This document shows positions 2,991-49,400 of a DNA stretch of 64,000 nt, piece after piece. The stretch is from Raillietiella orientalis (lineage: Eukaryota), in assembly GCA_036172245.1 (NCBI GenBank), contig JAYWIR010000042.1:806001-870000 (forward strand), written 5' to 3'. Both the position numbers and the translations under genes were made by a program. The notes beneath the pieces were generated by a model. It ran no database searches, was not told the DNA's origin, and saw only the letters and a program-made list of their open reading frames with translations. Numbering within the stretch: the first letter of the stretch is position 1; each line of letters starts with the position of its first letter.

Positions 2991-3181
2991 AAGATGTTTC
3001 AGATGGTTGCCCTTTCTCGCCCGTAACTCCCTCGGCCTTTCTGCATCTTTTTCCTCCTTCCGCCATTCCCCACGTCGGGCCGCAGTACCCCTCTTAGCGT
3101 TCACGTGGGTTCAGATGCGCTCATTCACCTTTCCCTTCTCATCTGCTACTCTGAAGAGAGTTCATCCCTCCTTCCAATCAG

Positions 3182-3310: not shown

Positions 3311-3420
3311 GTGAGTATTTCAGCCAACGATCCCTTCCACTGCTCTTCTCCGCATATCTGAGGTCGCAGGAGCGAATGGAGACCGGTGGGAAGAGACGAC
3401 TCGTAACTGCAAGCTTCCAG

Positions 3421-10978: not shown

Positions 10979-11026
10979 CTGAAATGCAGCATTTTACGAC
11001 AGTCGTTGTGTAAACAAACAGCTTAC

Positions 11027-11326
11027 TGTAGACGTTGATGCTGCCTTTTCCCACTCCTTGCACATTTTTGGCGATGCATTCATATGCACCGGAATCTCGC
11101 TCGCTAAATATGACTATCGTCAGCCTCAGATCCATGCGGTATGAGTATTTGGCTCCAGAAGTGAAAGATTTGACCGTGTACCTGCCGCTGCTCACTACGA
11201 CGTCGCCTTCCGGGTTCTTCCAGTAGTTCCGTGATAATGGGTAGGCTTCGATTTTGCACTCCAGGGTGACGTTGTCCCCGTTCTGCACAGCTACGAGCTG
11301 GTGAGTCGTGTACACGGAAGGAGCAA
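11027..11326 (-). CDS. Gene B (DIP/lachesin-family IgSF) exon, Ig3
   Basis: ttgtacAG acceptor. Translates to FAPSVYTTHQLVAVQNGDNVTLECKIEAYPLSRNYW...LTIVIFSERDSGAYECIAKNVQGVGKGSINVY, matching DIP Ig3 VTLEC..EAYP...NYW and Y.C.AKN..G...G.I..Y. GTAAG donor. Confidence 0.95.
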
Positions 11327-16354: not shown

Positions 16355-16483
16355 AATGCACCTTCAGGGAGATTTCTTTGCTCACAGCAGGAGGCACCCC
16401 GTTGGAAGCGGTGCACAGGTAGATTCCCATGTCTCTCCTGAATGACTTCACCAGATACAGGCTCGTACCCTGGTAACGGCGCA
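16355..16483 (-). CDS. Gene B exon, Ig2 second half
   Basis: cttattgtAG acceptor. Translates to VRRYQGTSLYLVKSFRRDMGIYLCTASNGVPPAVSKEISLKVH. GTAAGT donor. 129 nt, same as the gene A equivalent. This frame is not in the ORF track. Confidence 0.95.
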
Positions 16484-16545
16484 CTACAATAAGCTATTCG
16501 ATTCTCACAAATCGTCACCCAACCTGCATCGTACAAAATGCTTAC

Positions 16546-16704
16546 CAAAAGTGGTCCTGTTAATTCGAATATCTGCATGATCCTGTCTTGTCCAGTGCAC
16601 TGCGGGTGTAGGGTAGCCGGAAGCTTCACATTTCATAACAACATCATCGAATTCGCAGACTGTGACGTCAGAACTGCTGTTCCTGTCAAGTATGTCAGGA
16701 GGAA
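16546..16704 (-). CDS. Gene B exon, Ig2 first half
   Basis: gtcgtttAG acceptor. Translates to VPPDILDRNSSSDVTVCEFDDVVMKCEASGYPTPAVHWTRQDHADIRINRTTF. GTAAG donor. 159 nt, same as the gene A equivalent. Confidence 0.95.
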
Positions 16705-16760: not shown

Positions 16761-16968
16761 CCAGAACCTCCAAGTAGGAAACCAAGGACTTCGATTTGGC
16801 CGTGTTCAGCTGACACATGTATATCCCAGAGTCAGCTCGCTGTACGTTCTTGATGCGCAGATAATGAGTTTTGTGATTGTCTCTGGACACCGTGATTCTT
16901 GGATTTCTCGTGATAATATGACTGTTCACGGCAAGAATGGCAGATTGTTTGTACTTTATCCAGGCGAC
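16761..16968 (-). CDS. Gene B exon, Ig1 C-terminal part
   Basis: gttttcAG acceptor. Translates to VAWIKYKQSAILAVNSHIITRNPRITVSRDNHKTHYLRIKNVQRADSGIYMCQLNTAKSKSLVSYLEVL. GTAATT donor. 208 nt, same as the gene A equivalent. Confidence 0.95.
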
Positions 16969-19632
16969 CTGAAAACCCGTGAGACCATTACATGCATTCC
17001 CCTTCCAGGTAGACTTCCTGGTAGACCCACGCGGAAGACTGTGGGACGCGGCCACGGGAGTGCCGTACGCTTTGCGAAGGAGGGGCGCAATCTTATCGAT
17101 AACTCCCCCCTTTCCCCTCCACCTCCACGGGCGTGCTGACAGGGGCGATCGGTGCACGGCTTCGTCACACGCGTTCCCTGCACTAGGTACTTCTGTAGGC
17201 GGTAGAGCCGTCTGCCCATCCACTCCTGGCGCCTACGCGAACTCTCCAAACCAACCGCCGTCTCTTTGCTCAGGCGGCAGACGGCTTCGCCGAGACATCT
17301 TGCACCGAGAGCACACCAACATGCGAGAACATCTCCGTCTGTCCAACGAGAGCCCCTTTGAAACTGCGCCACTCACGTTCTCAAGGGGAAACGGACGGGT
17401 GGGCGCTCCCCCCAGTTGCCAGGAGACAGGTTCCGAGCACCACGCAGAGATTCGCGAGGAAACCGCAGCTCCCTTCCACGCACCCGCGAACTCGCAGACG
17501 AGATCCCGACTGTCGCGATGATGCCCGACAGATACGGACGTGCCATTTTCAAATCGAGGGCGAATCCTGAGGAGCCGTACCCCTCTGGAGGCAACCCGAT
17601 GAACGCGCACCCTTCGACGGTGCATGCCTCTCTCTTCCGCAGGTGGGAGCTTCGCCAATTCAGAAGCGTACGCCACGGTGCCAGAGCAGCCGGTCACCCT
17701 GAGGGACGCACTCTTCTGCCGCCTGCTGAGCTTCTTCGCCCTGACCCGTTGCAAGCGGGAGAGACCACTCGTGCTCACGCAGCGCCGTTGCTTGGGCGCC
17801 GTCACACCCTCCGTCTACCGCGAGCCATCCGCCTTCATGTCGCAGCTGCGTGCGCACCAGATTTCCGCGGGAGCAGGACTTCTCGTAGGCGATGGGAGCA
17901 ACGCCTTCCTTTTCGATCCTGCCGACGGCTGCTGCTCCTCTTCCCGTGGGTGCGTGCCCGACAGCCGATCGAAGGTCCTGAACGCACTGTCAGTCCATCT
18001 TGGTACGAGGCGGCGTCTCCTTTGCTTCCTTTGTCCGTCCCTTCCGCTCCATCGGAATCGTGAGGGACCTCCCACCCCACGTGACGCTGCATGCCGAGTC
18101 CACCGCACCAAGCCGACCGCCGCTGGCGCTCCGTGGCCGCGGGTCCACCAACTCGAACCTTTCACGTCGTTCCCCCGAGCTACGCGAACGGCCTCATGCC
18201 GATCCAGGACACACCCGGTCGACGGCTTCCTGCAGATTCGGCTGCCGGTGCTCCTTCGGTGGCCTTCGCGACGCTGTTCTATCGAGTGCGCTCCTCCGTG
18301 CTCTTGCCCTGGTCCAGAACTCCGGAACTATCCGGGGAGCATCTGGCTACCCACGAGCGATCCGGAATCGGCTGAAGAAAGTGGCGATACCGCCGAAGAC
18401 GCAGTCCACCTTGGGTCGAGGTTCGTCCTCCGCTCCCAGCACCCGCGTCCACCTTTCGGATGGGATGCTGGGGGAAACACCGCCCCGCGGGATCAGGGCG
18501 GATCCTTGAGCATGCGCGTCGGGCGGCGGCAAAAAGCAGTTCCGAGGCGGCGAGGGCGCACTCTTCCGGGAACGAAGGGAAGAGCGCGGACTCCCGCTGT
18601 CCCAGGAGCGGAGCAACAAACCTCCGTTGCTCCGATGCTGCCATACCGAGAAACAGGTAGCGAGGAGGGTCCTCCTTGAAGGCTGCTTAGCAGCAGACTT
18701 CGGGGGAGAGGAAAGAGTGGGACCGGAAACGGAGACCTTGGAGAATCGCCTTCTTTCGGAGGGTGGATTGCACGCGGTCGTCACTCCAAGTAGGAACGCG
18801 AGCCGCGCTCACGCGGGAACTCTTCTTCGAGGTGGACGAGCTTTTCTTCTTCTCCGCGAAAGGTTGCGGCGTGGATGGCGCGGGACCATCAGCGGAACGA
18901 GGTGCAACATGGAGCCGAGGCGAAGCAGTGCTGCTGCCGTGGGCGGAGGGAGAGGTGCGCCGTGACTCGCCACGAACCTGAACGCTCCTGGACCTGGGAT
19001 TTTGCATTCCGGGGAGCAGCACGGCGCGAAAATCGGAAGCGCCGGCATCGGGACCGCCATTTACGCAGGGAATCCCTCCGGTACCAGCCGGACGAAGAAA
19101 TCCCGGTGCCTGGCGTATGCAGGGAGGGTGTCCCAGGGAGATTCGGGGACGGGCCGCCAACGGGCCCGGTGAAGGACTGCGCTTCCCAGAGTGAAGGGCG
19201 AGGTGCACTCTTGAAGGGACTCTCGTCCCCCGGGATTCATCTGCGGAGAACGGGAAGCGAGGAGTCACCGTGCGGTGCGCACGCTAACACCCCTTGCGGG
19301 ATTCGGTGCGCGCCTCGTTGCCCATCTTCCCGTGGGGGGATGCGGAGCGAGTTCTCTCCGAAGCCGGAAGCTTGCAGCGTCTTTGGAGAGGTGGACGCGG
19401 TGGCTCCCGACGGAGCGCTGGGGTGCCTGCAGAGGAGGTGGGCGGTCACGGACGGCTGCGGTAGGGCGTGCGAGAGAAAGGATAGCCGCATGCCAACCCA
19501 TCGGGTTTGCGGGAAGGTCGGGCAGCTACACCCACGACGTGGTTCGGTTGCGCTTGCCTCAAGCAGATTTTTTTGCTTACAAAAGACTGCTCACATAAAG
19601 AGTGGCTCTGCAGTTTAGGAAAATCCTGTGGA
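16887..19632. repeat. Large inverted repeat, left arm (~2.7 kb, GC-rich)
   Basis: Reverse complement of ~33943-36688. Mirrored ORFs have a constant coordinate sum of 53575 (17416/36159, 17624/35951, 18679/34896, 18875/34700, 19275/34300, 19501/34074; exon start 16968/36607). Confidence 0.97.
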
Positions 19633-20749
19633 ACGGCTATAAGAAAAGCTCGAATCTTCCTTGTAATTTGAGAGAAGTGTGTTGGGCACATGGTTGCAGA
19701 AGCAGGCGACAATCAATAGGAAGTGCTGCGTTTATTGGACTGAATGATTGTGCATGCAAAAGATTAGCAAAGCGAAATGCCAACGTGTGTTTTTTTACTT
19801 TCTTAATGCTTCTCTTTCTTTATTTGATTTGGCAATGGACGGGCGTCTTCGTTCTCGGTTTTTTTTTCCTGATTCCTTGCAATTTTAGCTAAGATGTTTA
19901 CTCTGTGACGTTCCGTGACCGCAATATGAAGAGTCTGGACAGAGGGAGCTGAAGCTTCTTGAGGTGTTCACATCTGAATATTTTCTTTCCAACCTTTTTC
20001 AACTGGACCACAGTCCGTTTGCCTCTAAACAGTCGTTACTTCTTCCGAGATTCCTTCAACTGAAGAACTGGAAGATGGTCAACAGGAATAAACAGGCACT
20101 CCATTTTCTTTCTTTGTTAGCAATGCATGCTTTGACTTGCAGCCTAATGAAGACTTGGAAGGCGAACTGCTGAAGACTTTTGCAGCTCACTGTGATGTTT
20201 CCTCAGTACGGTTTCTTCTAATGGTACGCGACGCTGATGGTTTCCGGTAGGTTGATGGTAGGTTTCCTGGCTATGAATGGTAGATGTTAAAATGCCAGAA
20301 GGATTTTCATGTGCCATACGCAATTCGTTTTTCTTAAATGGCCTTCAAAAGGTAAAGGTGATGTCTTAAATGACCCTTGCTTGCTTTGTTACTCTTGGAA
20401 ATCAAGTTTATTGTGATGGGTCACATTGAACTCAATGCTGACATTTACTACTGTAGGTGAGCGTCACTGAATTATCAAAAATAAAATAATTTTTAATGTA
20501 AAGAAAGGGAAAATATGGAGCTCTTATTGTACGTTGCAGTTGACTGTCCATGGCAAAATAAAGCCAACTGAAAGATAGTAAAGAGATGATAAATTCATAC
20601 GTCTTTTTCCTTTAATGTATTGAAGCGAGAAATAAATCTCACTCTTCGAAGAAAGGTCCAATCCCTGAGCATTTGATTTTTGATCTCTATCCTAAGTCAT
20701 ATTCTTGGGAATGCACATCTATTTATTCGCTCTTGGATGTTCTCTATTC

Positions 20750-21950
20750 AAAGACTAATCCCTACTTCTTGCGGCAATTCGTGTTGATCTCATGAGAGAA
20801 TGAGTACAATGGCCAGATGTGAGGTTTAGAAATATGAATCTCCGGCCGTAGACCCGTTATTTGAACCACCGAAGGAGGTATCCACAACCACCGCATTGCT
20901 GAAAACCTTGAGTTACTTTTGCAGCACAGCTGAAGATTTTAAGGAACATGTCGAAAGAGTGACACCTTTTATCCCAAGCATTTTGGTTTCACGACAAAAT
21001 TCTCTCTAACTGAACCAGGAATTTTGATGATTCCATCACTCCTATCGTTGTCGGTTCATGGTACAGCCGATTCTGGTTACAGCACATTCAGCGGAATGGT
21101 AACGAGCTCTTTGAGGACTCGCCTTAAATAGAATTGAAACGAAGACAGGATAAACGTGCATTATTTTAGAGAATGCAGCAATCGTGGGAACTATGTCAAG
21201 GACTCTTATCATATGAGAAAGAAAAAAGGTATGAAGCTTCTAGAAATCCGTTTGCTACACGACAGACAGAACTCAATACCACAAAAACACAGAGATAGAA
21301 ATGTTGCTCTTTCTTTTTTTTATAGTCCCCTTTGTCAACGTCTGACCAAAGGAATTCGGCCGCAGAAAACATTGAGTTCTGCATCTTGTCAAGCAGGCTC
21401 AAGAACTCATGGTGCAGTGGCTTACGGATAAAACAACACCTTTTCAAAGAAATCTCTTTCTTCAATGTTTCGTTCAGGATGATGGCACAGGGCAAAACTG
21501 GCATCTTGCAACCTGTGATTGAGAACCAAGGATAGAAGATTCCACCCAAAATAATCCCTTCTTTGTTTTCAGCTCATCAGTGGGAGCATTTCATCTGTTC
21601 AAAACACGTGATGTGTTTCCCACTAAACGAATTCGATGTTATGCATATTTTGTCAGATGGAGCAATCAGACAGGCACAGAGTCCTCCAGGAAAACATTCT
21701 TCATTTGAACTGGCAGTTGCAAACTGCTATGGTAAAGTCAGTACGTGCATGAATCCTTCAGCTTTCACAGTGATTCATGAATGTGACGAAGTCTTAAGCA
21801 CCTTCTCTAGAGGACTTCCAAAGACGAGGGAAGCAAAGCACTTTCAAACTCTGAATATTTCAATTTAACTCCATCAAAGTATGAAATGCCAAGGGTTGAT
21901 TTTTTCTTCTACCCTTAAAAAGGAAATCAAGGTTGGAATCCATTCACCAA
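20750..21950 (-). mobile_element. Heavily decayed LINE RT fragment
   Basis: Weak colinear RT-like remnants: GVVLS (~21430), MFSAAEFLW (FADD region, ~21350-21373), KCLG..SLFRH (~20950-20985) and LRPEIHISKPHIW (IRP.LEY...W-like, ~20812-20852). Confidence 0.3.
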
Positions 21951-22455
21951 GCATATATTCCAATTCCTCTCGCCTCTAGACAGGAATTCGCTCTTCCTGA
22001 GGAAGTTGGATTCCACATTCGATCTTCAAACGATATCTTTTATAGAACCGCAAAAACTATAGAAATCTCGAAAAGAGCACATTTCTGCATCCGGTAATTT
22101 CCGAAGAGGAGTCTCATTTTGTTCGACCATCGAGAACGACGAGCCGAGAACACGAAATCAAACATCTGCACAAGATTGGGAGGCAAAGTTTCTCAGAGAC
22201 CTTGCCAAGACCGAACCACTCGATGGGGGTAGTTTCACGACGAGATGGTAAGTGCGGCACTCGACGAATTGGACCAAACAAAATACGAATCTCGTGAGCC
22301 TAAAGTTCGAAAATTAAATATTCACCATTGGAGACGTCATTGCGAAAGCACCGAGACCACAAAAAATGCAATACGCGGTAAAACGCACTCATCAGTGAAG
22401 CTAGCGGTTTCTTCGTGGGTAGTCAATTAATGAGGTGGAAAAAAGAAATACAAAC

Positions 22456-22568
22456 CTCGTATTTCCCCAAGTTGTTAATCACACAGGAGAATTTGACGTC
22501 TCTACCAATTGGCACAGTAATGTTGACCATGGGCTCCAGAAACTGGGGCTCACTGTCATCTGAGTATC
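22456..22568 (-). CDS. Gene B exon 2, start of Ig1
   Basis: ccttttt-AG acceptor. Translates to (G)YSDDSEPQFLEPMVNITVPIGRDVKFSCVINNLGKYE, the DIP P.F.EP..N.TV..GR...F.C...LG.Y pattern. The GTTTGT phase-0 donor joins directly to VAW at 16968. An alternative acceptor at 22559 is possible. Confidence 0.9.
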
Positions 22569-25500
22569 CTAAAAAGGCATGTAAAAATTGTTGCATGTGA
22601 TAGGCTTCCTTTAGCAAAAATCTTTCGAGGCCATCAATTTTAGTTTCCCTGTCCCCGCCCGAAAACAAAAAACTTCAGTGAAGATCTTCGACTACACTGA
22701 TGCACGTCGCATTTTCAGCTTCATGCCGAAACGCTCACGAAATCGCATTACCACCGCAAGTCTTCAAAAACTGTCTCCACTAGCCACTTTTCACAAGAAT
22801 GTATTCGGAGTTTGCCACTAGAAAGGTGGCCAAGGGTGGGAGAGCAGCACAAGCAGAGGATCCACAAGTAGCGCAAGGAGTCCCCTAAATAACAACCACA
22901 ACATCAGCTCTGCAAACGAAGCCATCTTTTCTCAAAAAGGGAAAGCAAAACGGGCCGCAGGTCTAGCAGACGAGAATGCGTGCACGAGGTCAGCCCTCGG
23001 ATGCACACAAAACGCGAATTCGAATTCCCGAGGACAGTTCTCCCTTGCGTCCGTTCGTCCTTTCTGTCCTTCTCCCACGTGTCTCCATCGGTGCACCAAT
23101 CGAACGGGTGGTGTGGCTCGGGCGGTCTCCAAGGAATGCAAAGAGGAGCACTTCATTCACGAAACAGGAGGGAGAACTCTTGCGGAGTGACAGGTCAAAG
23201 GTTAGAAGGGGAACTCGGCACTCCGTCACATTTCTCGATCGAATCGGAAGCAGTCTTCCCGAATTCCCGTGCTCGCGCCTGGCTTCTCGATTAGACCGGA
23301 CACGTGACTCGTGCTCGGATAGAAAGTCGCAACGGTCTATCTGCGAAACGATTCCACGAAGCATAGCAACGTCATCGATCTGCTCCGGGACATTCTTCAC
23401 CTCTCTCCTGTATGACCCATACGCCAATACAGTGCTCCTGCAGCCGAAGGGAGGAGAATGCCGAACTGAATGCTCCTCATTATGGACGATTCCAGATGCG
23501 TCCTCCTGAGATTTCCGTGCTTGCCTCGACCTCGTGCGGGCATCTTTGATAGCCGGACAGGATTGCGAGTCGAAGGGGTTGCCAAGAGCTTCACTTGGGC
23601 GTGTTCCCCTGCTTTTGCAACGTGCGACGGTGCCTTCTTCTGAGGGGAAACCGCTCGCACCGGTAGGCGGTTGCGCACATTTGGGAACGACACTTTTCTA
23701 CGGGAACGCAGGGACATTTCACGTGGTAGAGAGATGCGAATGGCCGTTCTGCGCCGATCGATGGTGGCTCAAGCTGAGAAGAGTGAAACGGTGACACCGT
23801 GGATCGCGGGGGATCGGTTTGAACGCGGTTGATGTTTTGTTTCCAAGGCAACGGTGTCGGACGTGGACGGGAAGCTGCTTTGCTGCGCACGATCCAGGTG
23901 TCGTGAACTAAGTGGTGGAAATGAAAAGGTCTCTCCCATTTTAGGCACCGGACTGCACCATTCCTGACCGCAGACAACTTCCGTCTTCTGGGAGTTCCAG
24001 AAACAACGCTTTAGCATTTCACTTTTGCTGAGCCGCTCGACTGGACATGGGAAGAAGACTCGCATCCTGCCTCGAGTTCCGATCAAAATGGCGCGCCCGG
24101 AGGGCGGCGACGACCGCGATGTTGCATGAAATCTTCCACTCGGTTACCACGGTTCATTTTGGAGGGCAGAGGGCGCAAGGACGCTGCTGATGCATGGTGC
24201 AGTGGCAGAACCGTCGACCACGATTCTCTCTTTCGGCGATGCCATCAGGAGACTGCGTGCGTTCGCGGAAGTGCATCTGCGTTCGGGATGTACGCGTTTT
24301 CCGCGTGCCAATGCTCCCTTCATTTCTCTGGATAAGTGTTTTCCTCGGACCGCAATGAACGCGCGTGCTTTTGTACGTTGCTGTAATAAGAATTGGCGAG
24401 CGAGTTGTATTTGTGAGGTGGTTCGCCTCATCAGGAGCCGATCGGAAGAAATGAAAATGGTAGCACCTCTCTGGTGCAACCTCGATGGAATGCGCCGTCG
24501 TCTCGTCTCTTCTTCCGGTTGCAGTGCTACCGCTCATAGAGACCTTTCGGATAACTCAACCGTGTTCGTGATGATGATGCCGGCGGCTGTCGCATGAGAT
24601 CCGTGAAAAAAGATTGTACCTCGATACGTAAAGGTTTTTTTGAAGTTTTCAGCGTCTGACTTTCCACCCGAGATTGGGGTTATTTCAACCTAAGTTTTCC
24701 CGAGCTGCGTCGTTTCACCGCTTGCACAAGGTTTGTGGCCAACTAAAGGTATGGCTTGTAGGATGAAGAGTCCTGTGCAGTCCTCTCCGGTGCTAGTGGC
24801 ACAAATTCTGTTTCTTCTTACCGCTAAGGTTGGCAAATTAGCGAAGCATCGTTTATACAAATTTCAGACGTATTTGATTTTAAATTTCTCTCCTGTCTTT
24901 TGCACTTTTCGTCCTCGTGTCCTTTGGATTTCATATTAACCCCAGGTGGTCCTTCCTATTTTCCCATTGTGTGAAGCTGTGGGGACCTGCAGTGTTTTAA
25001 CATGATGGATTCGGACAGTGATGTCTGATTTGAACAAGGATATGGTAGAGCCTTGTTAAGTTTTCGTTGTGAGATCGAGGCAGCGGTCAAACTAACAGGA
25101 TGCTCGTTCCAGCTCTGCCAGGATTTCCTTTCTCATCCAGCCGTGATCCTCCATTCAGATCTGAAAAAGCTCCAGCCTGAAAAGCAGCTGCACCTCGCTC
25201 CGTCTGAAGAGATTCGAAGTTCCCTGACGGCGTCCTCAATCTCTTGAGAACTTGAACCCGGTCGTAGCAAACCGCAACTTCTTCCCGAACCGCAAGGTGG
25301 CATGGAGGAAACCAATTCCCTCGCATCTTCTACTCTCATTGCCCACGAGTTTCTTGGAGTCTGCCGCTGGTATCCGGATCTCATCCAAATCAGCCTCCGC
25401 CTGTTTTCACTGCTGCTTCGTGATGCCTTGTGCTCCTTCAGGACGCAACGGGCTCGACTCTTGGAGCGACGCAGAACCACGCTTCTCAGCGCCTTGGCCG

Positions 25501-28500
25501 GCTCTTTCCTGGTACTCGGGTCGACACGTTCAGAATGTCCTTGCAGCGCCTCGTTCCTATGCGTGCACGCGCCACCGTCCACGCCTTGGCGCGGATGCAG
25601 GGGGGCGCGCACATCGCCATCACGTTCCCTTCTTCCGAGCCATCCAAGTGCATCTTGCAATCTCGTGGGATATCGCCCTCTCCCGTTTCCCTCCGTGCAA
25701 CTCGTTCTGCAGATGACTGTGGCTTCTGTGTAAGCGGAAGCCAAACTCTGCATCTCGTAGAGGTTCTCCAGAAGCTCGCAATGGTAAGCTGCTGGCGACC
25801 GTCTCCTGACTGCCTGCTCCCGGAGGTGAGACGATGGCTGTTGCCGTGGAGCCTTCAAGTTTTGCAGTAATCGCCGCCCTCAGGAATGTGTGCCAATTTT
25901 TCATCTCATGCAAACCTGACACCGCGTGGTTTCCTTGCCACTGGATGTAATGTTTTTCGTTCAAAACTGGCTGTAGGAAATGGGAGGAAAGTATCTGTCT
26001 TCGAGGATGGCAAGGATAAAAATCCGGTGAGGCGTCTTTGAGTTTTCAAGTTCTGTGACTGAGCTCCATCGTTTGTCTCTGATTCGGAAAGAGCTTCATT
26101 TTGCGAACGGGAACTTTTGTTTGAAAACAAAATATTCATTTGTGGTGATGCAATTTCGGGATTTTCCTTGTGAATTCATCGACGCCTCGCCTAGTTCTCC
26201 TAGGTGTCAGATATAGTGGACATCATGGTCGAAAATAGGTAACTGCACTCCATGCAGTCCTTGTTGCATCGCTGCATCCTGCGACTATAGAAAAGTGCAC
26301 GTAAGAAGGCGTAAGTAGCAGAAATGCTTTTGCTTGTCGAGCGCTCAGCTCTTGTGATATCGATCACGAATTTAAAGGTTTCAACCTTAATAATCCACTT
26401 TCTCCCTTTTCCTCCATGGTGCGGTCGATTGCTTCCAAGCACGAACTGATCCCTCGGTCTTTGAATGCAACTTACAAAATGAAGGATGCATAAGGAAGCT
26501 CTGTTTCTATTTTTTTTTCAATGGCCGAGATGCCTGGCCTTGTGTGACCTGGTATCTATTTCTCCTGATATTTCTTTCTTCGGTACAAGCATGGCCGCTT
26601 CACTACGCGTTGTTTCTTGGCATCCCGATTGTGGAGGATGGCGTTACCTGGCATCTGGCTCGATTTTTTTGTTGATCGGAGCAATACTTCACCCGCAGCT
26701 AGTGTTCGACTTCTGGAAGCGCTCTCTTAATGTGTCTGTCATAGAGATAAAAACTGCTTTGCTTGTCCTTTGATGTTTAAATGGTCTTGAATTCTTTTGC
26801 TCTGGAAAATTCTTCGCAGTCGTTAGACTTTGGGGATTCATCACCTGAGGACCAATGATTTTGTGTTTGACGGTCATCTTTTCTAAGGTATTCGATAGTC
26901 TTCTCATTTTATTCTCAGATTTTTTTTTCGTTTTGCTTTATTTTTTCCATTTCTCGGAAAAATGTTTTCAGCTCTGCAGCTCCTGCTTATGGGAGCTCTC
27001 TTAATCGGAACACTTCTTGTTTTTTCCATCACCTCTCCTCCCAGCAGCAGGCTCCTCCTCAAGGAAGTTTCACCTTGTTTCACGAATCTTCAGCTGAGTG
27101 CCATAAAGCAGCATGAGGAACGCGCATGAAGGACTGCCGCGATCTGTTCCAAAACCAGCTCCTCCAAGTGAAGCAAATCTTGAGCCAGTGAGACCGGAAG
27201 AAGTTATTGTGCGATGTCAGTTATCATCCTGGTCTGATTAGGGGACTACCGCGAATGGTAATCAATAGAACTAAAGCGCAAGACTCACAGGTGATGGTGG
27301 GCACAACGAAGAGGATCTTCGTGGGAACAAATCAGCGAAGGGGCACGGACGAGTAAAATTATTAGAAGAGAAAGAAATGCATTGGAATTTAACGTCGCTT
27401 CGTAGCCTCCACTTCAACGCACCCTTGGATCCCCCTTGAAAGGGTCTTCTTTGCTTCTCTTATATCGGCAGAGTCGTTATGTTGGTTCTATTGTCCTGAT
27501 GAGGAGCAAGCAGGAGAAAATCCTCCTCCTGGAGTCTCTTCTGTCTGATCGCTCAGCGAGCAACTCGTGTCAGTATGGATTTCTGCTGCTCCCAAAGTGC
27601 GAAGCAATTCGTAACGATTCCAAACTGAGTCCGGTGGAGTGTCGCCGTGGGAAACAGTAGCATTTCTCAAGTGATCCCTCGCAGATCGTCAACCAGTCCA
27701 TGTTCCGTGTAGAAGAGAGAGGGCAGCAAGGTGGTGTCCAGAAAACGAACACGGAAAAGGGAGAGGATATGTCATTCAGTGCTCTTTTAGTCTTTGATGA
27801 AGATCGACTTGAGTCCCCGAATTCGGTTGTCCTGTGGTCGTACGGAAATCAGGTCGGAGTCATCCAAACAGTTGTTACATCATCTCCATTTTATGCTCCT
27901 CTACTCTAAGAACTGAGAACTCCGAGTCGGAATAACGTCTTACATTGCAATGGTAAACAGAGGTTCAGCATCGCTCACCGATGAAACCTTTTCTCTGTGA
28001 TGAAGAATATCTACTTTTTCTGAGGATTTTAGAGAAAAGCTGAAAGACGAATTAATGAGATCTGATGCCTATGATTTTTCGCAATGAATAATAGAGATTC
28101 TGTTTGCCAATCTGTATGTTCAGGTTTTCTTATGTATGAATCGATGGGTTTCGTTACGGGATCACGTGGACTCTTAGCTGAATAGTACGATGTTTAGTAA
28201 TTGGAAGACAGCGTGGGAAGAATAAGGAACACGTGTGAGTAACGATGAAGCTTTGGTTTTCCTCATACGAAGAAGTTTGTGAAAGATGGGGTCTCCACGA
28301 GATGAGAAGGAAGAAATGATGCAATGGTGCGAAGAGCCCAGTTAATTATGTCACGAGCAGCGCCTGCTTCATTTTACTACTGGTACCTGAACATAATTTC
28401 AGATTCATTTTAGGTCTTGGACTTTAGATTTCATTTAGATCGCAGAGGTTGTATGGATCCTTGACTTCCTGCTCCAGCCAGAAGGTCCTCTTATGGTTCC

Positions 28501-29329
28501 AGTGAAATTGCCACTGGCGTAAAAAGGCGTAATCAAGGATGGTTGGATTCACTGGCAGGAAGTATGAACATGGTGTGGCTTCTCCCAATTTCTCGACCAC
28601 GGCCAACTACGATTTTGATTACTGGCGCAAACGATTGTTCCTCCGCGCTTCCGAAAAACTCTTAGATCAAGTGGAATGGAAGAGAATGTGGCAGTCGCGC
28701 AGATGGCACTGAATCCATGGAATGGTATCTTGTTGCCCGCTTTCGCGAGAGGATCACTCGAAGGTTTGCTCCTTACGGTTGGAGTGAGAAAAAAAATGAA
28801 AAATTCTCATCCCTCCAGGAATCCAAGATTGCTCGACCCCATGTATCTTCAGGCTCTCAGTTTGGGATTTGGGAGGATCACACGAACTCTGACGCCTGCA
28901 TTCAATCAGATGTCATAGAGGGATTTTTGCAGTCTCCAGATACGAAACTGAACACCGGTGAGCTTTCACTTTCAGTTTACCGAGCTGCTCTCAAGCATTT
29001 TTTTTTCCTCCCGATGACCTCCAATTCCGCTGAAATTCATTGTAATTGCAATTTGATTAGAGGTTATCTCTGAAGAGCACTTTTTGATAAACGGACAAAT
29101 AACCAGGAGGAAGTGTCAAGAAATTTCTGTGCTCTGCGAGTAATCAGAACTTGCTGAATTCGGACTGCAAACAAGAAGAGTGGATTCTCAGCCTTGGCTC
29201 TGATAAACGCATGTCCATCACGATCCCTGCTGTTGCTAAGAGGCAAAGAAATTGTCCTCTATTTAGAAATTTTTCTGAGCGTTTCAAACATGGCCCTGCT
29301 AAAAATCGAATGAGCATAAACCCTTTGGT

Positions 29330-30415
29330 TGCTCTTCAGGGCAGTCCTCTTTGTATCCCAGCAGAATTTCAAAATAAATTCTGAGCCACTCGACGTTTGG
29401 GATGCGAACTTGCTCCAGGTTTTTGTGTCATTTAGGAAATTGCGAGCTGCTCCTCAGAATAATAAGAAAGCAGAAGATATTCTGTGGAGGCTAATCGAAA
29501 ATCTCCTTTGGCGATTAACTCTTGTGGGCCTGAAAACCACAGCTGAGTTCCATACCGAGAACAGAAGGGAATGTTAGCGAATAAGAAACTGCGTTTTGGA
29601 GAGCACACTTTTCTAATTTTGAAAAGCTTCGAGATTTTCGCACTGCGGCGCCGATCCTTTCGCATCGGATGCCAATCGGTGCGAATCGGTGACTCGCAGG
29701 ACTCTTCCTGACCACTGCCTCTTCGTCTGCTGCACTTTCTGTTTTCCATAATGCCTGTGGAAGACTGTGTTCCTTTATAAACAACATTTCTTGCGTTTCC
29801 TGGAAGTGTGGTCACAATCCGGGGCGGATTCAGTGCGAGCAATGCGTATCTATGAACCTCGTCTTGTTCCAGATGATTTGGCGCGAAAGAAGCCCTACTG
29901 ATCGTGAACGGTTACTGTTAGGAACAAAAGGTGGCGAGGACTTCAGCGTGTATATCCTTCCTTGAGTCTAAAGCAACTAGTGATACGTTCTCGAAGGCCT
30001 ATTCGTTAAAAAGCCAGTGAAACGTGAAACGAGAGCTATGAGAGGACATAACTAACGAGTGTAAAATCACTGGACGCAAGAGATTCTCGTCCGAGTTCAT
30101 TGACTGAAGCCACCGATTGCTTTAATAAGAGATGGCTGCTGCAATTTTCCACATTGAGCGAGAAATTAGATGGAAAGTTTCGTGAGAGACTCCGCGATCA
30201 CGAACGAACAAATATCACGAAACTGGGAATCTTGGTCCAGACCGTTCAGCTTCATGGAGCCCCAAGGGAACAAGCACTTCTGGCTCCTCTTCAGAACAAG
30301 CGGCTTAAAACCTGGAAACAGATTCTCACTGACTAGATGCTCGGGATGCAAGCACTTGCTCCAGGGTAGGTTCTTTGGTCATTTAAAGAATTGCGAGCTG
30401 CTCCTCGGAATAATG
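29330..30415. repeat. Pair of diverged ~135-bp direct repeats (29330-29465 and 30280-30415), possibly gag remnants
   Basis: Shared gggatgc..acttgctccagg..gtcattta..aattgcgagctgctcctc.gaataat. The - strand reads EEQLAIL.MTKEPTLEQVLASRA, loosely gypsy-gag-like. Confidence 0.65.
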
Positions 30416-31581
30416 ACACGTGAAATTTTACTGGGTGGATCATCTGGAGCTGGTACAACAGAAAGAACTGATAGGCATCGGGGAACTCATCACCTTCTCA
30501 AGATTTCTTCATACGAAGTAGAGTTCCTCGGAACACTTCTTCGGTTTCAGTGACCGGGTGAATTAATTTTCACGAACACCTTCCGAATAACTTATCTGGG
30601 TCTCCATCATCTCAAAGAACACGGGAAGGAAGCACCGGAGTGAGCCATCATCGACTTGTTGGAGGGGCAAATAAAATCGTTTTCTCTAGGCATTGCAAGT
30701 GTGATGGCAAAATTCCAGTTTCCAGCTATGGACGGTGGATCGAACCCTTTTTCTGAACTACTTGCATCCTTGTCCTCTCAAGATCATTAGCACTGGAGAG
30801 TAAACTGACTATAGCTCCGACTCGTGGATGAGCACTTCATATCGGTAACAAGGGTTAGCAACTCTGCAAAGCCTTCCTCTCTGAACCCTAATTTTCAAGA
30901 ATCAGCAGTTGTTTTAGTAGATAAATAAAGCTGAAACTGAGCTGTGAGTTCCGTACGGTTCCGAAGCGCTGAAGTCTCACCATGAAAAGTCCACTCTTCG
31001 GCGATACTGTTTCCAGGATTTTTTTTTTTTTTTTTTTTTTTACTCTGTGTGCGTTTGCAGCACACGGTAATCACGTTAAGAGGGCAGAATAATTCGGCGT
31101 GCTTCGCCGCACCTAACGCGGTCAGCTTTCGTGTTTTACGTGCACATTCGACGCGTGACCTTAGCCCCAAAGACTCTCCAGCGAGCAGCCTGCCCACTTT
31201 CGTGAAACCTCCCTTATCTCGTGAGCGAGCGATTTCCAGTTTCTTAATCTGCATCTCCAAGACCGAGATCCTCTTCTCCTTAACGAGAACAAGTGGCCCG
31301 AAACGAACTTTATGACCTTGATGCCAGCGGCGGTCTTCGTTGAACGTCATAATTAAATTATACGAATGGTTGGCAGCTTCCCTCCCATGCAAACAACCAA
31401 ACCACGGTGCCTGCTTCAATCGTCTCGAGGGGAAAACTGGGATAAATAATTTCCGAAGCGACTCCCTCCAGCATCTGAGATTCCCCCCACTTAGTTCTCC
31501 GATCTCAAGGATTTTATCCAACGAATGCCGGCAGTGCGGAAGGGCCAGAAGCGATTAGAAAAAGGAGATCCCGTGACTCAC

Positions 31582-31636
31582 CGCTAGACAGAAGAAAGAG
31601 CTGCATAGCAGTGGTGAGGTACGTCAGTGTGTCCAT
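31582..31636 (-). CDS. Gene B probable exon 1 (signal peptide)
   Basis: Encodes MDTLTYLTTAMQLFLLSS and ends at a consensus G|GTGAGT phase-1 donor that fits exon 2 (...LFLLSSGYSDDSEPQF). In-frame upstream ATGs exist at 31669 and 31747. Confidence 0.65.
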
Positions 31637-32799
31637 CGTCTTGCGTCCGTCGCAGCTTCCTACAACCATCACGGCACACGAGCATGCATTCCCGGGAGCA
31701 AGGAGTTCAGTGAGTCCTTCGGGATGCAACTTGCTACTCGGAATCATGGTTTCCCTGTTTCTCTTCGCATTTTTATTTGTTTCAGGAACGGGGGGGAGGG
31801 AGGGGAGAAAAAGAGAAAAAAAAAGAAGAAGCCGTGTTTATCAGCGAAGGGCACACGCTTGCGCGCACGTTCGACACGAGTTGCCAGGATAGTACGAGAG
31901 AGGTGTGCTCCTGTGAATCTTCCTTGAATCCGCGAAATCAAGTATTCATAATCGATAATTATGAAGGTCCTTCAATTGTCCTCATCTCGGCGGTGCTGCA
32001 AGCAACCGTGGTCATGTCCTCGGAAGTCCTGAAGGATAAGCAAGTTAAAAGCGGGCGTCCCGAAAATCGAGGACATCAGCAAAACGCAAATTCAACCAGA
32101 CGGTCGGCGTGTGAGGATGAGCTGCGACACGCATATCTTGTACACGTTGCACGAGGCAGGTAGTTGAGTTGGTGTTTGCCGATCCGAGCAGCCTGTTCGA
32201 TCAGCAGGCCGTCGGCATTCGGGAATTCCTCGGTTTGCTCCGGAATCGCCGGCAGAGGGAAAGCGATGGTTTTGTGACTTCCGTTCGTGATCCGAGGGAT
32301 CCACTGCGTCCATTCCCAGGAAGCAAGGCGCTCTGCGCGAGCTAATTTAGGGAAACCTCATCAGCGTCGAAGACTGGCTGTCTCAGATCCTCATGAGCTC
32401 AAGTACGGCAGCTCCGTCCGAGAGCGGAGGATGCTGATAACGAACCCATGTGGGCTTACCGTCTGCGTGTTACCGCCAACTCGTCATGTTGAGGGTGTTT
32501 GCATTCCTCGAGCCATCACTCGTTCTTACACAGCGTGACTTCGAGGGTGTCGGAAAACCAGAAGACGAGACGGGCAGATAGGAAACAGAAATCCGCCGAA
32601 CCTTCCAGAGCTGCATGCTGAATCGCTCCATCCACTCCTAAGAAACGACAACTGATGGAATGTAGCTTCAGTTGCCCACACGCTCACTCTTAGTCCACGA
32701 ACCAAAGACTAGTCTTAAGGCTACTCAGGAGGGATTCTGGGGAATTTTTCACGGGCAGTTAGTGTTGGCTGTTGGCACCAACGCTAAATTCTTCTACAT

Positions 32800-33150
32800 T
32801 GGCAAAGTTGATTCTCTGGAGAAACTTTGTTTCTGGCATCACTTTCTCTGAGGAGCTTTACTTCCATGTTGACTACTATTCCCGTTGTAAGGCCTACGCC
32901 TGCGGTGACCACTGTGCTCTCTCCATTAGCGGTTGACCATATCGTCGTGAGTTTTTGCCCATGTGATTTACTAAATATTCTCCAGAAAGACTCCGAGAAC
33001 ACTCCTTGCTTTATCCGTGTGCTCAGCATTGCTCCATCTGAGACGGTCGTTTCGTGTAGGGCAACTAAGGTATGGAGAACAGCACTTTTCTTGAATGGTG
33101 AGGAATGCAACCGCCGAGTCCAGAGGTGCTCAGGATGCGCAGTGACCTAT
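32800..33150 (+). mobile_element. Possible LINE RT C-terminal remnant
   Basis: GITFSEELYFHVDYYSRCKA (LG..FD..L.F..H....KA-like) followed by KVW...RRVQR (VW.P...LE.VQR-like). Confidence 0.35.
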
Positions 33151-33942
33151 TTAAAAGGCTCAAAATTTGAAACTGCAATTTCACTAACCAGTCATCTACC
33201 CACACTTCGAGGATGAGAAATAGGGTAATCCAATTGTAAGTTACATTCATCCGTCACCGCAGATTGATTTTAGCAGTAACCGTAACTTAAACTCAGAATA
33301 ACTAATAGGAATTGAATTAATGACCTTCTACAGCAGAGGTGTGTTGAATGCTAATTTGGATAAGTGACTCCCGTCCTGTGTTCAGGGATGGTTTCACCAC
33401 TCGACACATGAAGCATCAATCTCCATACGTGCTGTTATAAACTTGAAAAAAGACTTCCACTTTCAAAGTGAAAATAGATAATCACGTTAGAATAAAAACA
33501 CCCACATCCTTATTTCTAGTTTCTCCTTCTGGAGTCTTCCCTACACCATCTTAGAAAGAACAATCATTCTGCATTGATGTGTTCTCATGACGAACAGGAG
33601 CCACGGCCACTTAGAAACTGAGGTCTCACATCTTAGCATCGACTCCTATCTCACATTCCATTTCAAGTTATTAAGAGAGGAGACCGCCATATCGTAAAAC
33701 GGAGCGGAAGCCATCATAGCGGTATCCTAACAGGAAAGAGCCAAGTACCCTAAGAGTTGACCCAAGCATAAATAAATGCAAGAATCGTGCATGCCTAAAC
33801 ATTCTCAAGCCATTGGGTATTCCAACTGCGGATGCAACAACTTCTACTCCCATAAATATATTTCTTCTATAAGAGCAAATGCAAATGCTGCCCTCGGGGC
33901 AACATTTACTTCTCCTATGGTATCTCCCTCTTCAGTTCCTAA

Positions 33943-36688
33943 TTCCCCTGGATTTCCCTGAGAGTTGCAGAACCACTCTTTATGGGCGTATTCTCTAAGC
34001 AGGAAAATCTGCTTGAGGCAAGCGCAACCGAACCACGTCGTGGGTGTAGCTGCCCGACCTTCCCGCAAACCCGATGGGTTGGCACGCGGCTATCCTTTCT
34101 CTCGCACGCCCTACCGCAGCCGTCCGTGACCGCCCACCTCCTCTGCAGGCACCCCAGCGCTCCGTCGGGAGCCACCGCGTCCACCTCTCCAAAGACGCTG
34201 CAAGCTTCCGGCTTCGGAGAGAACTCGCTCCGCATCCCCCCACGGGAAGATGGGCAATGAGGCGCGCACCGAATCCCGCAAGGGGTGTTAGCGTGCGCAC
34301 CGCACGGTGACTCCTCGCTTCCCGTTCTCCGCAGATGAATCCCGGGGGACGAGAGTCCCTTCAAGAGTGCACCTCGCCCTTCACTCTGGGAAGCGCAGTC
34401 CTTCACCGGGCCCGTTGGCGGCCCGTCCCCGAATCTCCCTGGGACACCCTCCCTGCATACGCCAGGCACCGGGATTTTTTCGTCCGGCTGGTACCGGAGG
34501 GATTCCCTGCGTAAATGGCGGTCCCGATGCCGGCGCTTCCAATTTTCGCGCCGTGCTGCTCCCCGGAATGCAGAATCCCAGGTCCAGGAGCGTTCAGGTT
34601 CGTGGCGAGTCACGGCGCACCTCTCCCTCCGCCCACGGCAGCAGCACTGCTTCGCCTCGGCTCCATGTTGCACCTCGTTCCGCTGATGGTCCCGCGCCAT
34701 CCACGCCGCAACCTTTCGCGGAGAAGAAGGAAAGCTCGTCCACCTCGAAGAAGAGTTCCCGCGTGAGCGCGGCTCGCGTTCCTACTTGGAGTGACGACCG
34801 CGTGCAATCCACCCTCCGAAAGAAGGCGATTCTCCGAGGTCTCCGTTTCCGGTCCCACTCTTTCCTCTCCCCCGAAGTCTGCTGCTAAGCAGCCTTCAAG
34901 GAGGACCCTCCTCGCTACCTGTTTCTCGGTATGGCAGCATCGGAGCAACGGAGGTTTGTCGCTCCGCTCCTGGGACAGCGGGAGTCCGCGCTCTTCCCTT
35001 CGTTCCCGGAAGAGTGCGCCCTCGCCGCCTCGGAACTGCTTTTTGCCGCCGCCCGACGCGCATGCTCAAGGATCCGCCCTGATCCCGCGGGGCGGTGTTT
35101 CCCCCAGCATCCCATCCGAAAGGTGGACGCGGGTGCTGGGAGCGGAGGACGAACCTCGACCCAAGCTGGACTGCGTCTTCGGCGGTATCGCCACTTTCTT
35201 CAGCCGATTCCGGATCGCTCGTGGGTAGCCAGATGCTCCCCGGATAGTTCCGGAGTTCTGGACCAGGGCAAGAGCACGGAGGAGCGCACTCGATAGAACA
35301 GCGTCGCGAAGGCCGCCGAAGGAGCACCGGCAGCCGAATCTGCAGGAAGCCGTCGACCGGGTGTGTTCTGGATAGGCATGCGGCCGTTCGCGTAGCTCGG
35401 GGGAACGACGTGAAAGGTTCGAGTTGGTGGACCCGCGGCCACGGAGCGCCAGCGGCGGTCGGCTTGGTGCGGTGGACTCGGCATGCAGCGTCACGTGGGG
35501 TGGGAGGTCCCTCACGATTCCGATGGAGCGGAAGGGACGGACAAAGGAAGCAAAGGAGACGCCGCCTCGTACCAAGATGGACTGACAGTGCGTTCAGGAC
35601 CTTCGATCGGCTGTCGGGCACGCACCCACGGGAAGAGGAGCAGCAGCCGTCGGCAGGATCGAAAAGGAAGGCGTTGCTCCCATCGCCTACGAGAAGTCCT
35701 GCTCCCGCGGAAATCTGGTGCGCACGCAGCTGCGACATGAAGGCGGATGGCTCGCGGTAGACGGAGGGTGTAACGGCGCCCAAGCAACGGCGCTGCGTGA
35801 GCACGAGTGGTCTCTCCCGCTTGCAACGGGTCAGGGCGAGGAAGCTCAGCAGGCGGCAGAAGAGTGCGTCCCTCGGGGTGACCGGCTGCTCTGGCACCGT
35901 GGCGTACGCTTCTGAATCGGCGAAGCTCCCACCTGCGGAAGAGAGAGGCATGCACCGTCGAAGGGTGCGCGTTCATCGGATTGCCTCCAGAGGGGTACTG
36001 CTCCTCAGTATTCGCCCTCGATTTGAAAATGGCACGTCCGTATCTGTCGGGCATCATCGCGACAGTCGGGATCTCGTCTGCGAGTTCGCGGGTGCGTGGA
36101 AGGGAGCAGCGGTTTCCTCGCGAATCTCTGCGTGGTGCTCGGAACCTGTCTCCTGGCAACTGGGGGGAGCGCCCGCCCGTCCGTTTCCCCTTGAGAACGT
36201 GAGTGGCGCAGTTTCAAAGGGGCTCTCGTTGGACAGACGGAGATGTTCTCGCATGTTGGTGTGCTCTCGGTGCAAGATGTCTCGGCGAAGCCGTCTGCCG
36301 CCTGCGCACAGAGACGGCGGTTGGTTTGGAGAGTTTGCGTGGGAGCCAGGAGTGGAAGGGCAGACGGCTCTACCGCCTACAGAAGTACCTAGTGCAGGGA
36401 ACGCGTGTGACGAAGCCGTGCACCGATCGCCCCTGTCAGCACGCCCGTGGAGGTGGAGGGGAAAGGGAGGAGTGATCGATAAGATTGCGCCCCTCCTTCG
36501 CAAAGCGTACGGCACTCCCGTGGTCGCGTCCCATAGTCTTCCGCGCGGGTCTACCAGGAAGTCTACCAGGAAGGGGAACGCATGTAATGGGCTCACGGGT
36601 TTCCAGGTCGCCTGGATAATGTACAAACAATCTGCCATTCTTGCCGTGAACAGTCACGTCTTCACGATAAATCCCAGAGTCATGGTAT
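33943..36688. repeat. Large inverted repeat, right arm
   Basis: Reverse complement of ~16887-19632. The core (~34005-36656) is near identical and both edges decay gradually. Confidence 0.97.
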
Positions 36689-36816
36689 CTAAAATCAATC
36701 TGATGACCCCTTACCATCACATGAAAATATACAGAGTGACACTGGGATTCATAATGGAAGTCAAATCGAAATGGCAATGGCAGCGGTCATGTTCCTTAAT
36801 TTCATGGTCGTTATGA
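36607..36816 (+). pseudogene. Degenerate DIP Ig1 exon, mirror copy of gene B exon 16761-16968
   Basis: Intact tttccAG acceptor, then VAWIMYKQSAILAVNSHVFTINPRVMVS. A frameshift near 36725 moves the homologous IQSDTGIH...FMVV into another frame. The YMC cysteine is lost, no GT donor sits at the mirrored position, and there is an in-frame TGA at 36814-36816. No downstream Ig2/Ig3 exons were found. Confidence 0.85.
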
Positions 36817-49169: not shown

Positions 49170-49400
49170 ACACGGAAGACGAGAAAAAATTTTTGTTCAA
49201 GGTGCTCCCTATGAGTAATTTCACCTGTTGTTCCACAAGGGTGATCTGTACTACTTGTTTATGGTATAAGGTTAGTTCATTTATGCTGGATAAGTTTAAA
49301 CTGGTCAGCATCAAGGATAATGGGTTGCTTCCGGTTGTGCTAAGATTGCTGAAACTGGTAGTCCACATCACCTCTCCTCATATTGCTTTGTAAGGAAAAA
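49170..49400 (-). mobile_element. Possible BEL/Pao integrase N-terminal remnant
   Basis: RKQPIILD...TNLI...H.CG...HLEQKFF with in-frame stops resembles BEL/Pao KHPIILP...T.LI...H.G...LR..FW. Confidence 0.4.

Follow-up and report, generated by a model that had tools for sequence, protein, structure and literature searches.

What does it mean for a gene when its 5′ exons lie between two long, near-identical inverted repeats, each ending on its outer side with the start of the same exon? Gene B, a predicted DIP-like gene with three Ig domains, raises this question in the 64-kb window, the whole stretch of DNA analysed here, which is free of any N or gap. The initial annotation proposed that the arrangement forms an ON/OFF switch for a neural recognition molecule or else represents a static relic of an inverted duplication. 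We consider it probable, on balance, that the arms stem from an old partial inverted duplication of Gene B and have been homogenised by GC-biased gene conversion. The arms were analysed in one genome sequence from one individual.

Structure of Gene B

Gene B lies on the minus strand, where tblastn searches with 12 relatives place Ig1a, Ig1b, Ig2a, Ig2b and Ig3 in order. These queries are three-Ig proteins of 382-512 aa, picked among the best 150 of the 1901 matches (E up to 0.001) returned by an exhaustive protein search with the Ig3 exon, the top matches being giant multi-Ig proteins. The probable exon 1 (31582..31636) opens with an ATG and a signal-peptide-like start, MDTLTYLTTAMQLFLLSS, and runs for 18 codons plus one nucleotide to a GT donor; its basis is the reading of the sequence itself, in phase with exon 2, rather than homology or RNA, and no convincing acceptor precedes it. 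Exon 2 (22456..22568) encodes the first half of Ig1, ending in EPQFLEPMVNITVPIGRDVKFSCVINNLGKYE, is bounded by an AG acceptor and a GT donor, and is matched by 10/12 relatives. Both exons had been placed between the repeats by the initial annotation; exon 2 is secured there by its splice sites and relatives, while exon 1 stays "probable".

The second half of Ig1 is encoded by exon 3 (16761..16968), which is intact, starts with ...ttttcag|GTCGCCTGG at the outer end of the first repeat (arm A) and ends at a GT donor; its frame is recognised by the Pfam families ig, V-set and I-set. Exon 4 (16546..16704), 56 nt further downstream, carries the first half of Ig2 (Pfam Ig_3; tblastn match 16708-16553) and is followed by an exon for the second half of Ig2 (16359..16487, limits taken from the tblastn matches) and by the Ig3 exon (11022..11324), located by tblastn from three-Ig relatives.

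Among proteins of solved structure, exon 3 comes closest to the Drosophila DIPs, namely DIP-eta (6e-17), DIP-alpha (5e-15), DIP-theta (1e-14) and DIP-gamma (3e-11), as against 3.5e-8 for Dpr2 and 3.8e-4 for NEGR1, so that Ig1, judged on one 69-aa exon, resembles DIPs more than it does either Dprs or the IgLONs of vertebrates. We therefore predict a DIP-like three-Ig gene, for which Dpr binding and neuronal expression are putative. Word-index protein searches with exon 3 and with the Ig3 exon returned no match, and a metagenome scan with exon 3 returned three distant loci (37-45% identity), none of them with similarity to the arms.

Anatomy and identity of the inverted arms

A repeat search of the window detected one inverted pair (16850-19587 and 33988-36725; 2738 nt, 98% complementary), and blastn of the window against itself aligned 16889-19633 with 36686-33943 over 2747 nt at 97.74% identity (57 mismatches, five gap openings, E = 0), this pair being the sole long self-match within the 64 kb. 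The near-identical inverted arms of the initial annotation are thus borne out. Arm A (16889..19633, blastn limits) lies inside intron 2 of Gene B and extends across the acceptor into exon 3, of which it holds the first 80 nt, and arm B (33943..36686, repeat search and blastn) lies ~2.3 kb upstream of the probable exon 1. The two arms enclose a unique spacer of 14,309 nt (19634..33942; 46% G+C) containing exon 2 and the probable exon 1, which together gives the layout of a palindrome, with two high-identity inverted arms around unique sequence.

Within the arms, a high-identity core (16919-19571 in arm A, 34004-36656 in arm B) aligns over 2653 nt with no gap or indel and with 38 substitutions (98.57% identity). 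The differences are graded, with 17 in the outer 500 nt versus 13 in the inner 1650 nt, and the longest difference-free run reaches 390 nt (17803-18194).

Both edges of the arms fade, in register, into 60-130 nt of significant homology at ~60-70% identity, beyond which the similarity is random. The outer eroded edge of arm A (16823..16888, minus strand) is a stretch of intact exon 3 that aligns at low identity with its decayed copy; sensitive blastn lengthens the outer match to 16823/36748, and the local score beyond the core (15, versus a shuffle mean of 8.9) was reached by 3/1000 shuffles. The inner eroded edge (19572..19640 in arm A, partner ~33936-34003) shows ~70% identity before becoming random, with a local score of 24 versus a shuffle mean of 9.2 (reached by 0/1000 shuffles). 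A core at 98.6% identity hence adjoins co-copied, short edges at ~60-70%, a profile that points to gene conversion.

One thin sequencing run yielded 10 contigs of 151-258 nt on 16785-36784, free of joints and of differences; one of them stops within exon 3 (16785-16915) and another falls on arm A (19367-19517) with zero mismatches. This run is too thin to bear on orientation, and it has no contig in 27457-36784, an absence that carries no weight as evidence. The two contigs that fall on arm A or close to it have depths of 2.1 and 2.7, versus 2-3.6 on unique sequence, at most a weak hint that the arm is no high-copy repeat.

The exon copy in arm B

Arm B ends on its outer side in a copy of the start of the Ig1 exon (36607..36816, plus strand), preceded by the same kind of acceptor as the intact exon, ...tttccag|GTCGCCTGG at 36607. 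The earlier claim that both outer ends carry the same acceptor and exon start, at 16968 (-) and 36607 (+), therefore holds. The copy reads VAWIMYKQSAILAVNSH... and then diverges: it is near-identical up to 36686 and decayed up to ~36748, its identity dropping from ~98% to ~60% over a few tens of nucleotides. The copy contains a frameshift, is devoid of the conserved Ig Cys and of the D-x-G-x-Y-M-C-Q motif kept by both Gene A and Gene B, matches the intact exon at 33/68 residues and meets a stop at 36814-36816, after 69 codons. No homology can be demonstrated beyond ~36748 (16823 in arm A), so that the degenerate Ig1 exon of the initial annotation stands as a frameshifted copy up to that point and not over the remainder of its length.

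Four of the 12 DIP-like relatives match the pseudo-exon, their matches ending at 36690-36741, and none of the 12 matches anything in 36.8-64 kb, where no Ig2 or Ig3 relic follows. A dead third gene arranged head-to-head with Gene B, which we had considered as a candidate, was rejected for this lack of any Ig2/Ig3 relic. By its predicted translation, the pseudo-exon is dead and without a product of its own; it represents an unprocessed partial copy in opposite orientation on the same molecule, as in gene/inverted-pseudogene pairs.

Composition and coding content of the arms

The arms differ sharply in composition from their surroundings, with 63.2% G+C in arm A and 63.4% in arm B versus 46.4% in the spacer and 45.7-49.4% in the flanks, and they are the only blocks in the 64 kb with at least 58% G+C over more than 500 nt. 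In extent, the G+C plateau (17001-19600 and 33901-36600) matches the zone of high identity, and the CpG observed/expected ratio of arm A is 1.03. Among the core differences, 33/38 oppose A/T to G/C, the direction of change being unpolarised. In primate X palindromes, PMC8981503 reports 46.3% G+C in the arms versus 41.2% in the flanks, equilibrium values under biased conversion of 60.9% versus 39.9%, and less than 20% of the arm-flank difference explained by biased conversion over 29 My. Given this small effect in primates, the 17-point excess of the Gene B arms would call for a very long history unless the block was G+C-rich at the outset; the block could already have been G+C-rich before it was copied.

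Pfam recognised no family in five arm ORFs (198-358 aa) or in the 351-aa frame that ends in the pseudo-exon, a protein search found no relative of the 358-aa arm ORF, and Rfam found no family anywhere in the window. The 358-aa ORF shows 10 arm-to-arm differences, distributed 4/3/3 over codon positions 1/2/3 and changing eight residues. The arms thus appear to be devoid of recognisable coding function. Stop trinucleotides are depleted on both arm strands beyond dinucleotide expectation, and arm ORFs of at least 100 aa total 3239 aa versus 1866 +/- 358 aa in shuffled sequences (0/500 shuffles reach 3239), a depletion which hints at a block with a separate history of its own. Neither a tandem array nor terminal repeats were found in the arms. 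A mobile element was rejected as the identity of the arms, since the outer end lies inside a conserved exon, the arms have no terminal repeats, no element protein appeared among the ORFs scanned and the window offers no further copy.

Origin of the arms

The duplication that we favour would have copied in reverse ~2.7 kb of intron 2 together with its acceptor and ~145 nt from the start of exon 3, and would have inserted this copy ~2.3 kb upstream of the first coding exon. The copies would then have exchanged sequence by intrachromosomal, arm-to-arm gene conversion, keeping the 2.65-kb core 98.6% alike, and the GC bias of the process would have driven the core to 63% G+C. The edges would have dropped out of the conversion zone and then decayed; how far outwards tracts from the dead copy are tolerated is probably set by purifying selection on the intact exon 3. 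Such exchange has a precedent in a well-studied palindrome, for which PMC3723533 reports 56 conversions versus three inversions. Compared with the static relic that the initial annotation offered as its alternative, which fits better than a switch, this reading adds an old age and active homogenisation.

A single recent inverted duplication, with no gene conversion at all, is distinctly less probable. According to it, a G+C-rich intronic block, for example an old insertion, was copied once together with the exon start, an event ~1.4-2% of divergence ago that left a young static relic. An arm difference of 1.4% in the core and 2.3% overall fits such an event, the block is compositionally foreign to its surroundings and the depletion of stop trinucleotides hints that it has its own history. 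However, a recent copy leaves unexplained the in-register homology of 60-70% at both edges, the drop of the exon copy from ~98% to ~60% identity and the gradient of divergence inside the arms; moreover, the window showed neither a protein of a mobile element nor terminal repeats nor any additional copy of the block. It is the identity profile, with its in-register low-identity edges and its gradient within the core, that argues against a single recent copy and for the old, homogenised duplication.

Possible inversion of the spacer

The core, 2653 nt at 98.57% identity with an identical run of 390 nt, provides a substrate for non-allelic homologous recombination (NAHR), for which a tract of this length and identity should suffice. 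The geometry predicted earlier is correct: a crossover between the arms would leave exons 1-2 facing the pseudo-exon and cut off from Ig2/Ig3, and the inversion would create a loss-of-function (null) allele. Instead of a regulated switch, NAHR between the arms would entail a mutational liability or, at the very most, a polymorphism.

A polymorphic germline inversion, in which recurrent crossovers between the arms let ON and OFF (null) alleles segregate, is in our opinion improbable. The substrate is adequate, with the 2.65-kb core at 98.6%, identical runs up to 390 nt and a 14.3-kb spacer. In humans, repeat-mediated inversions are polymorphic and often recurrent, PMC3961182 reporting recurrence for 11/16 inversions of 5-226 kb between inverted repeats. 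Inverted human gene/pseudogene pairs likewise carry inversions in healthy people: a screen described in PMC12632684 listed 411 such pairs, and no fewer than 3.6% of healthy people have an inversion at one or another of these. At Gene B, however, inversion would produce a null allele, which in a conserved gene ought to stay rare, and conversion outnumbers crossover in palindromes (PMC3723533). The broader proposition that both orientations coexist, in the population or somatically, with homologous inversion toggling the DIP gene between intact and truncated states, is slightly more doubtful still; under it, conversion and the G+C footprint would be by-products of frequent pairing of the arms.

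Remaining explanations

An assembly artefact, with arm B as a misplaced or folded-back arm A, for example from the other haplotype, has little to recommend it. Heterozygosity of ~2% occurs in many invertebrates, and the ~2% divergence of the arms falls within that range; the thin sequencing run placed no read on arm B, although missing cover is not evidence. Yet the sequences flanking arm B are only 60-70% homologous to those of arm A and then unrelated, as expected neither from allelic variation nor from a fold-back chimaera, and the junctions are graded rather than abrupt, with no N or gap.

Even less credible is a role at the RNA level, in which the arms would pair in the pre-mRNA to form a 2.7-kb duplex around exons 1-2, with back-splicing, RNA editing or a source of double-stranded RNA as possible outcomes. 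Inverted repeats that flank exons favour circular RNAs, and the disposition of the arms around the exons is the one point in favour of this role. It requires transcription to begin upstream of arm B, a region with no recognised exon or start site, and no convincing acceptor precedes the probable exon 1, which carries the ATG.

A regulated somatic switch, flipping the spacer in particular cells or tissues to toggle a recognition molecule, has only the geometry on its side and is extremely improbable, as the alternative exon has decayed to the point of yielding no product, scans of 11 + 40 ORFs (the 40 being a subset of the 88 ORFs of at least 110 aa outside the arms) detected no family of recombinases, integrases or transposases, and the resemblance of the arm B acceptor and exon start is explained passively by the position of both inside the homogenised zone. 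The ON/OFF switch of the initial annotation accordingly finds no support, and a working DNA switch at Gene B is unlikely. Animal nuclear genes offer, to our knowledge, no established case of a programmed switch mediated by such repeats.

The likeness to the Hin, Gin and Fim switches of bacteria and phages is that inverted repeats enclose a segment carrying the 5′ end of a gene. Those switches use short sites, a dedicated recombinase and a defined output in both orientations, whereas Gene B has long arms of homology for repeats, the ORFs scanned include no recombinase, and one orientation would give only a truncated product, stopped by the pseudo-exon after 69 codons of that exon, with no Ig exons downstream. 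Taken alone, the locus gives no reason to propose a novel mode of gene regulation.

Comparison with known systems

By analogy, the locus resembles gene/inverted-pseudogene pairs such as IDS/IDS2. In IDS/IDS2 (Hunter syndrome), F8 int22h (haemophilia A) and SORD/SORD2P, crossing over of the gene with its copy flips the intervening segment and disrupts the gene, as reported in PMC12632684, and the common feature is a partial, intron-containing copy nearby in opposite orientation. Gene B differs in that its copy lies upstream, that the interval holds the gene's own 5′ exons and that the copy comprises only 2.7 kb of intron and part of one exon; furthermore, those pairs belong to man, whereas at Gene B the inversion is a prediction, in an invertebrate-like genome.

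With human polymorphic inversions, the locus shares a segment flanked by inverted repeats, whose lengths range from a few kb into the tens of kb, the segments in PMC3961182 measuring 5-226 kb. There, NAHR leads to recurrent flipping; here, a flip would inactivate the gene. If our reading is right, the arms also mark a structural weak point in a putative synaptic-specificity gene, at which recurrent inversion would yield null alleles invisible to short reads.

The arms of primate palindromes range from roughly 10 kb to megabases, whereas those of Gene B measure 2.7 kb, are 98.6% identical rather than >99% and contain no gene copies, only intron and an exon fragment. What the primate sex-chromosome palindromes (Y P1-P8 and those of the X) have in common with them is the inverted arms, the unique spacer and the raised arm G+C, to which is added an arm identity far above the expectation from age; the G+C excess is +17 points here versus +4 to +5 there (PMC8981503). 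In the palindrome treated in PMC3723533, conversion is much more frequent than inversion. If our reading is true, Gene B harbours a compact, small palindrome outside sex chromosomes, combining an old origin, high identity and a very large G+C excess, and it would lend itself well, as a natural case, to measurements of GC-biased gene conversion in a genome of invertebrate type.

Gene content and exon structure

Genes were mapped by combining stop-to-stop frames carrying Ig signatures, Pfam and tblastn with 12 three-Ig proteins, themselves picked from the 150 best matches to the Ig3 exon when it was searched exhaustively. Two convergent (tail-to-tail) DIP-like paralogues were mapped in the window, Gene A on the plus strand and Gene B on the minus strand. 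Gene B gave tblastn matches at 22551-22453, 16968-16762, 16708-16553, 16472-16359 and 11324-11028 (-). Proper splice sites bound both exon 3 (16968-16761, -; AG acceptor, GT donor) and exon 2 (22568-22456, -), the latter also being backed by homology. A probable exon 1 (31636-31582, -), read from the sequence alone, has an ATG and hydrophobic codons ahead of a GT donor, and its phase fits that of exon 2. Among solved relatives, exon 3 matches Drosophila DIP-eta, -alpha, -theta and -gamma best (6e-17 to 3e-11), far better than Dprs and IgLONs, so that “DIP gene”, as proposed in the initial annotation, is a fair name as far as one exon can show.

Gene A, a second DIP-like three-Ig gene (40-3716, +) whose 5' exons lie beyond the window, has its Ig1b, Ig2a, Ig2b and Ig3 exons at 40-249, 1187-1354, 3190-3306 and 3441-3716 (tblastn); the Ig1b exons of the two genes are 41% identical. 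Homopolymer-like A/T and pyrimidine tracts flank the probable exon 1 of Gene B, upstream at 31798-31834 and downstream, within intron 1, at 31009-31054; both were treated as repeats and left out of read mapping.

A single inverted repeat with a near-identical core

Compared with itself by blastn, the 64,000-nt window, which is free of N, gave exactly one long self-match, the inverted pair 16889-19633 (arm A) and 36686-33943 (arm B), with 97.74% identity over 2747 nt, 57 mismatches and 5 gap openings. An ungapped repeat search retrieved the same pair as 16850-19587 / 33988-36725 (98%), and further arm copies were absent from the window, even with sensitive settings. A metagenome scan with exon 3 found no related locus bearing the arms. 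The initial description, with arms of 2.7 kb and a spacer of ~14.3 kb, is borne out by this self-match of the window.

The core of the arms (16919-19571 vs 36656-34004) extends over 2653 nt with 38 substitutions and no indels (98.57% identity), all five blastn gaps falling in the inner edge. Differences within the core are graded, 17 in the outer 500 nt vs 13 in the inner 1650 nt, and the longest difference-free run reaches 390 nt. At the inner edge, identity remains at ~70% for ~60 nt beyond 19571 before becoming random (score 24 vs a shuffle mean of 9.2, reached by none of 1000 shuffles). Two short direct repeats, 14431-14519 / 53445-53534 (91 nt, 86%) and 47594-47634 / 49334-49374 (41 nt, 95%), are probably dispersed-repeat fragments.

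Composition and coding content of the arms

The cores have a G+C content of 63.2% and 63.4% with a CpG o/e of ~1.0, vs 46.4% G+C in the spacer and 45.7-49.4% in the flanks. Across the 64 kb, in 300-nt windows, a G+C content of at least 58% is sustained over more than 500 nt only in the arms, and this plateau coincides with the high-identity zone. Among the 38 core differences, 33 oppose A/T to G/C, and 17 of the 38 occur in CpG contexts. Other patches of at least 58% G+C, of 300-800 nt, occur at 2201-2600, 25301-25800, 41801-42100 and 53101-53900; TpA is strongly depleted window-wide (o/e 0.39-0.51) and CpG mildly so outside the arms (0.73-0.92).

The arms match no Rfam family, are not bounded by terminal repeats, direct or inverted, and hold no notable tandem array. 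Their numerous long ORFs are a by-product of composition: the longest (358 aa) is equalled by 18 of 500 dinucleotide shuffles, has no Pfam family and no relative in a word-index search, and its 10 arm-to-arm differences are spread 4/3/3 over codon positions, altering 8 residues. As an oddity, ORFs of at least 100 aa total 3239 aa vs 1866 ± 358 in shuffles, a value reached by 0 of 500. Open frames on both strands of the cores (16919-19571, 34004-36656) are longer than dinucleotide content predicts, without coding sign.

A decayed exon fragment at the outer end of arm B

Outwards, arm A leaves intron 2, crosses the acceptor and takes in 80 nt at the start of exon 3; the same acceptor and exon start recur in arm B, at 36607. 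Beyond 36686, the copy continues in register at ~64% identity over ~60-100 nt, after which similarity vanishes; with the high-identity part excluded, this outer zone scores above 997 of 1000 shuffles. The copy is frameshifted, reaches a stop at 36814-36816 and has lost the D-x-G-x-Y-M-C-Q motif kept in both genes. The degenerate exon initially placed at 36607-36816 is thus indeed decayed, its homology being traceable to ~36748 and not as far as 36816.

Although only 56 nt separate exons 3 and 4 in Gene B, no exon-4-like sequence follows the copy and none of the 12 DIP-like tblastn queries matched between 36.8 and 64 kb, which identifies the copy as a fragment and not as what is left of a complete third gene.

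Origin of the repeat

The repeat probably arose as a partial inverted duplication, now old, whose arms GC-biased gene conversion has since homogenised; in this favored reading its present orientation is static, and it is a liability in that rare inversions would create null alleles. The interior would have kept exchanging sequence between arms while the edges decayed in register, a scenario suggested by the near-identical core lying within short, strongly decayed, in-register edges. GC-biased conversion would have left the G+C plateau over exactly the homogenised interior, and tracts carrying dead-copy sequence into exon 3 may have been selected against, which would explain why divergence rises towards the exon. 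Primate X palindromes offer a precedent, with a reported G+C of 46% in arms vs 41% in flanks and equilibrium values of 60.9% vs 39.9% (PMC8981503); the +17-point excess found here is close to that equilibrium gap and so fits a long history, although the same source indicates that conversion may account for only part of such an excess, the block possibly being rich from the start. A young copy without conversion is unlikely, since a lone recent copy predicts uniform divergence and abrupt ends, in contrast to the observed core and edges.

Predicted consequences of inversion

The initially proposed geometry is right: crossover between the arms would invert 19.6-33.9 kb, exons 1-2 then reading towards 36607, and exon 2, ending in phase 0, could join the conserved acceptor of arm B. 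The ON/OFF or allele-like switch built on this geometry loses its functional alternative output, the exon being decayed. The inverted form would be a null allele and not an alternative isoform, because translation is predicted to continue for only 69 more codons, missing the second cysteine of Ig1, and because exon 2 would still be turned the wrong way if transcription started beyond arm B. The good state of the arm B acceptor and exon start requires no function, as both lie inside the homogenised zone.

Inverted repeats are reported to mediate recurrent polymorphic inversions (PMC3961182), and an inversion segregating here is somewhat more doubtful than a young copy. The one sequencing run found for the locus was too thin to bear on orientation, with 10 short contigs and no bridging ones. 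Misassembly is very improbable, and an RNA-level role seems slightly less credible again. A regulated somatic switch is the least plausible reading, given the null inverted form and the lack of recombinase-like domains in the 51 frames scanned, which included 40 of the 88 ORFs of at least 110 aa outside the arms.

The known parallels are mutational, not regulatory. Documented cases include IDS/IDS2, F8 int22h and SORD/SORD2P, and a human screen listed 411 inverted gene-pseudogene pairs (PMC12632684). A literature search for inversions or inverted repeats in connection with Dpr-interacting proteins found nothing relevant among the eight papers listed. If our reading is true, arm crossover would expose a DIP-like gene to rare null inversions. 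For palindrome P6, 56 conversions vs 3 inversions are reported (PMC3723533).
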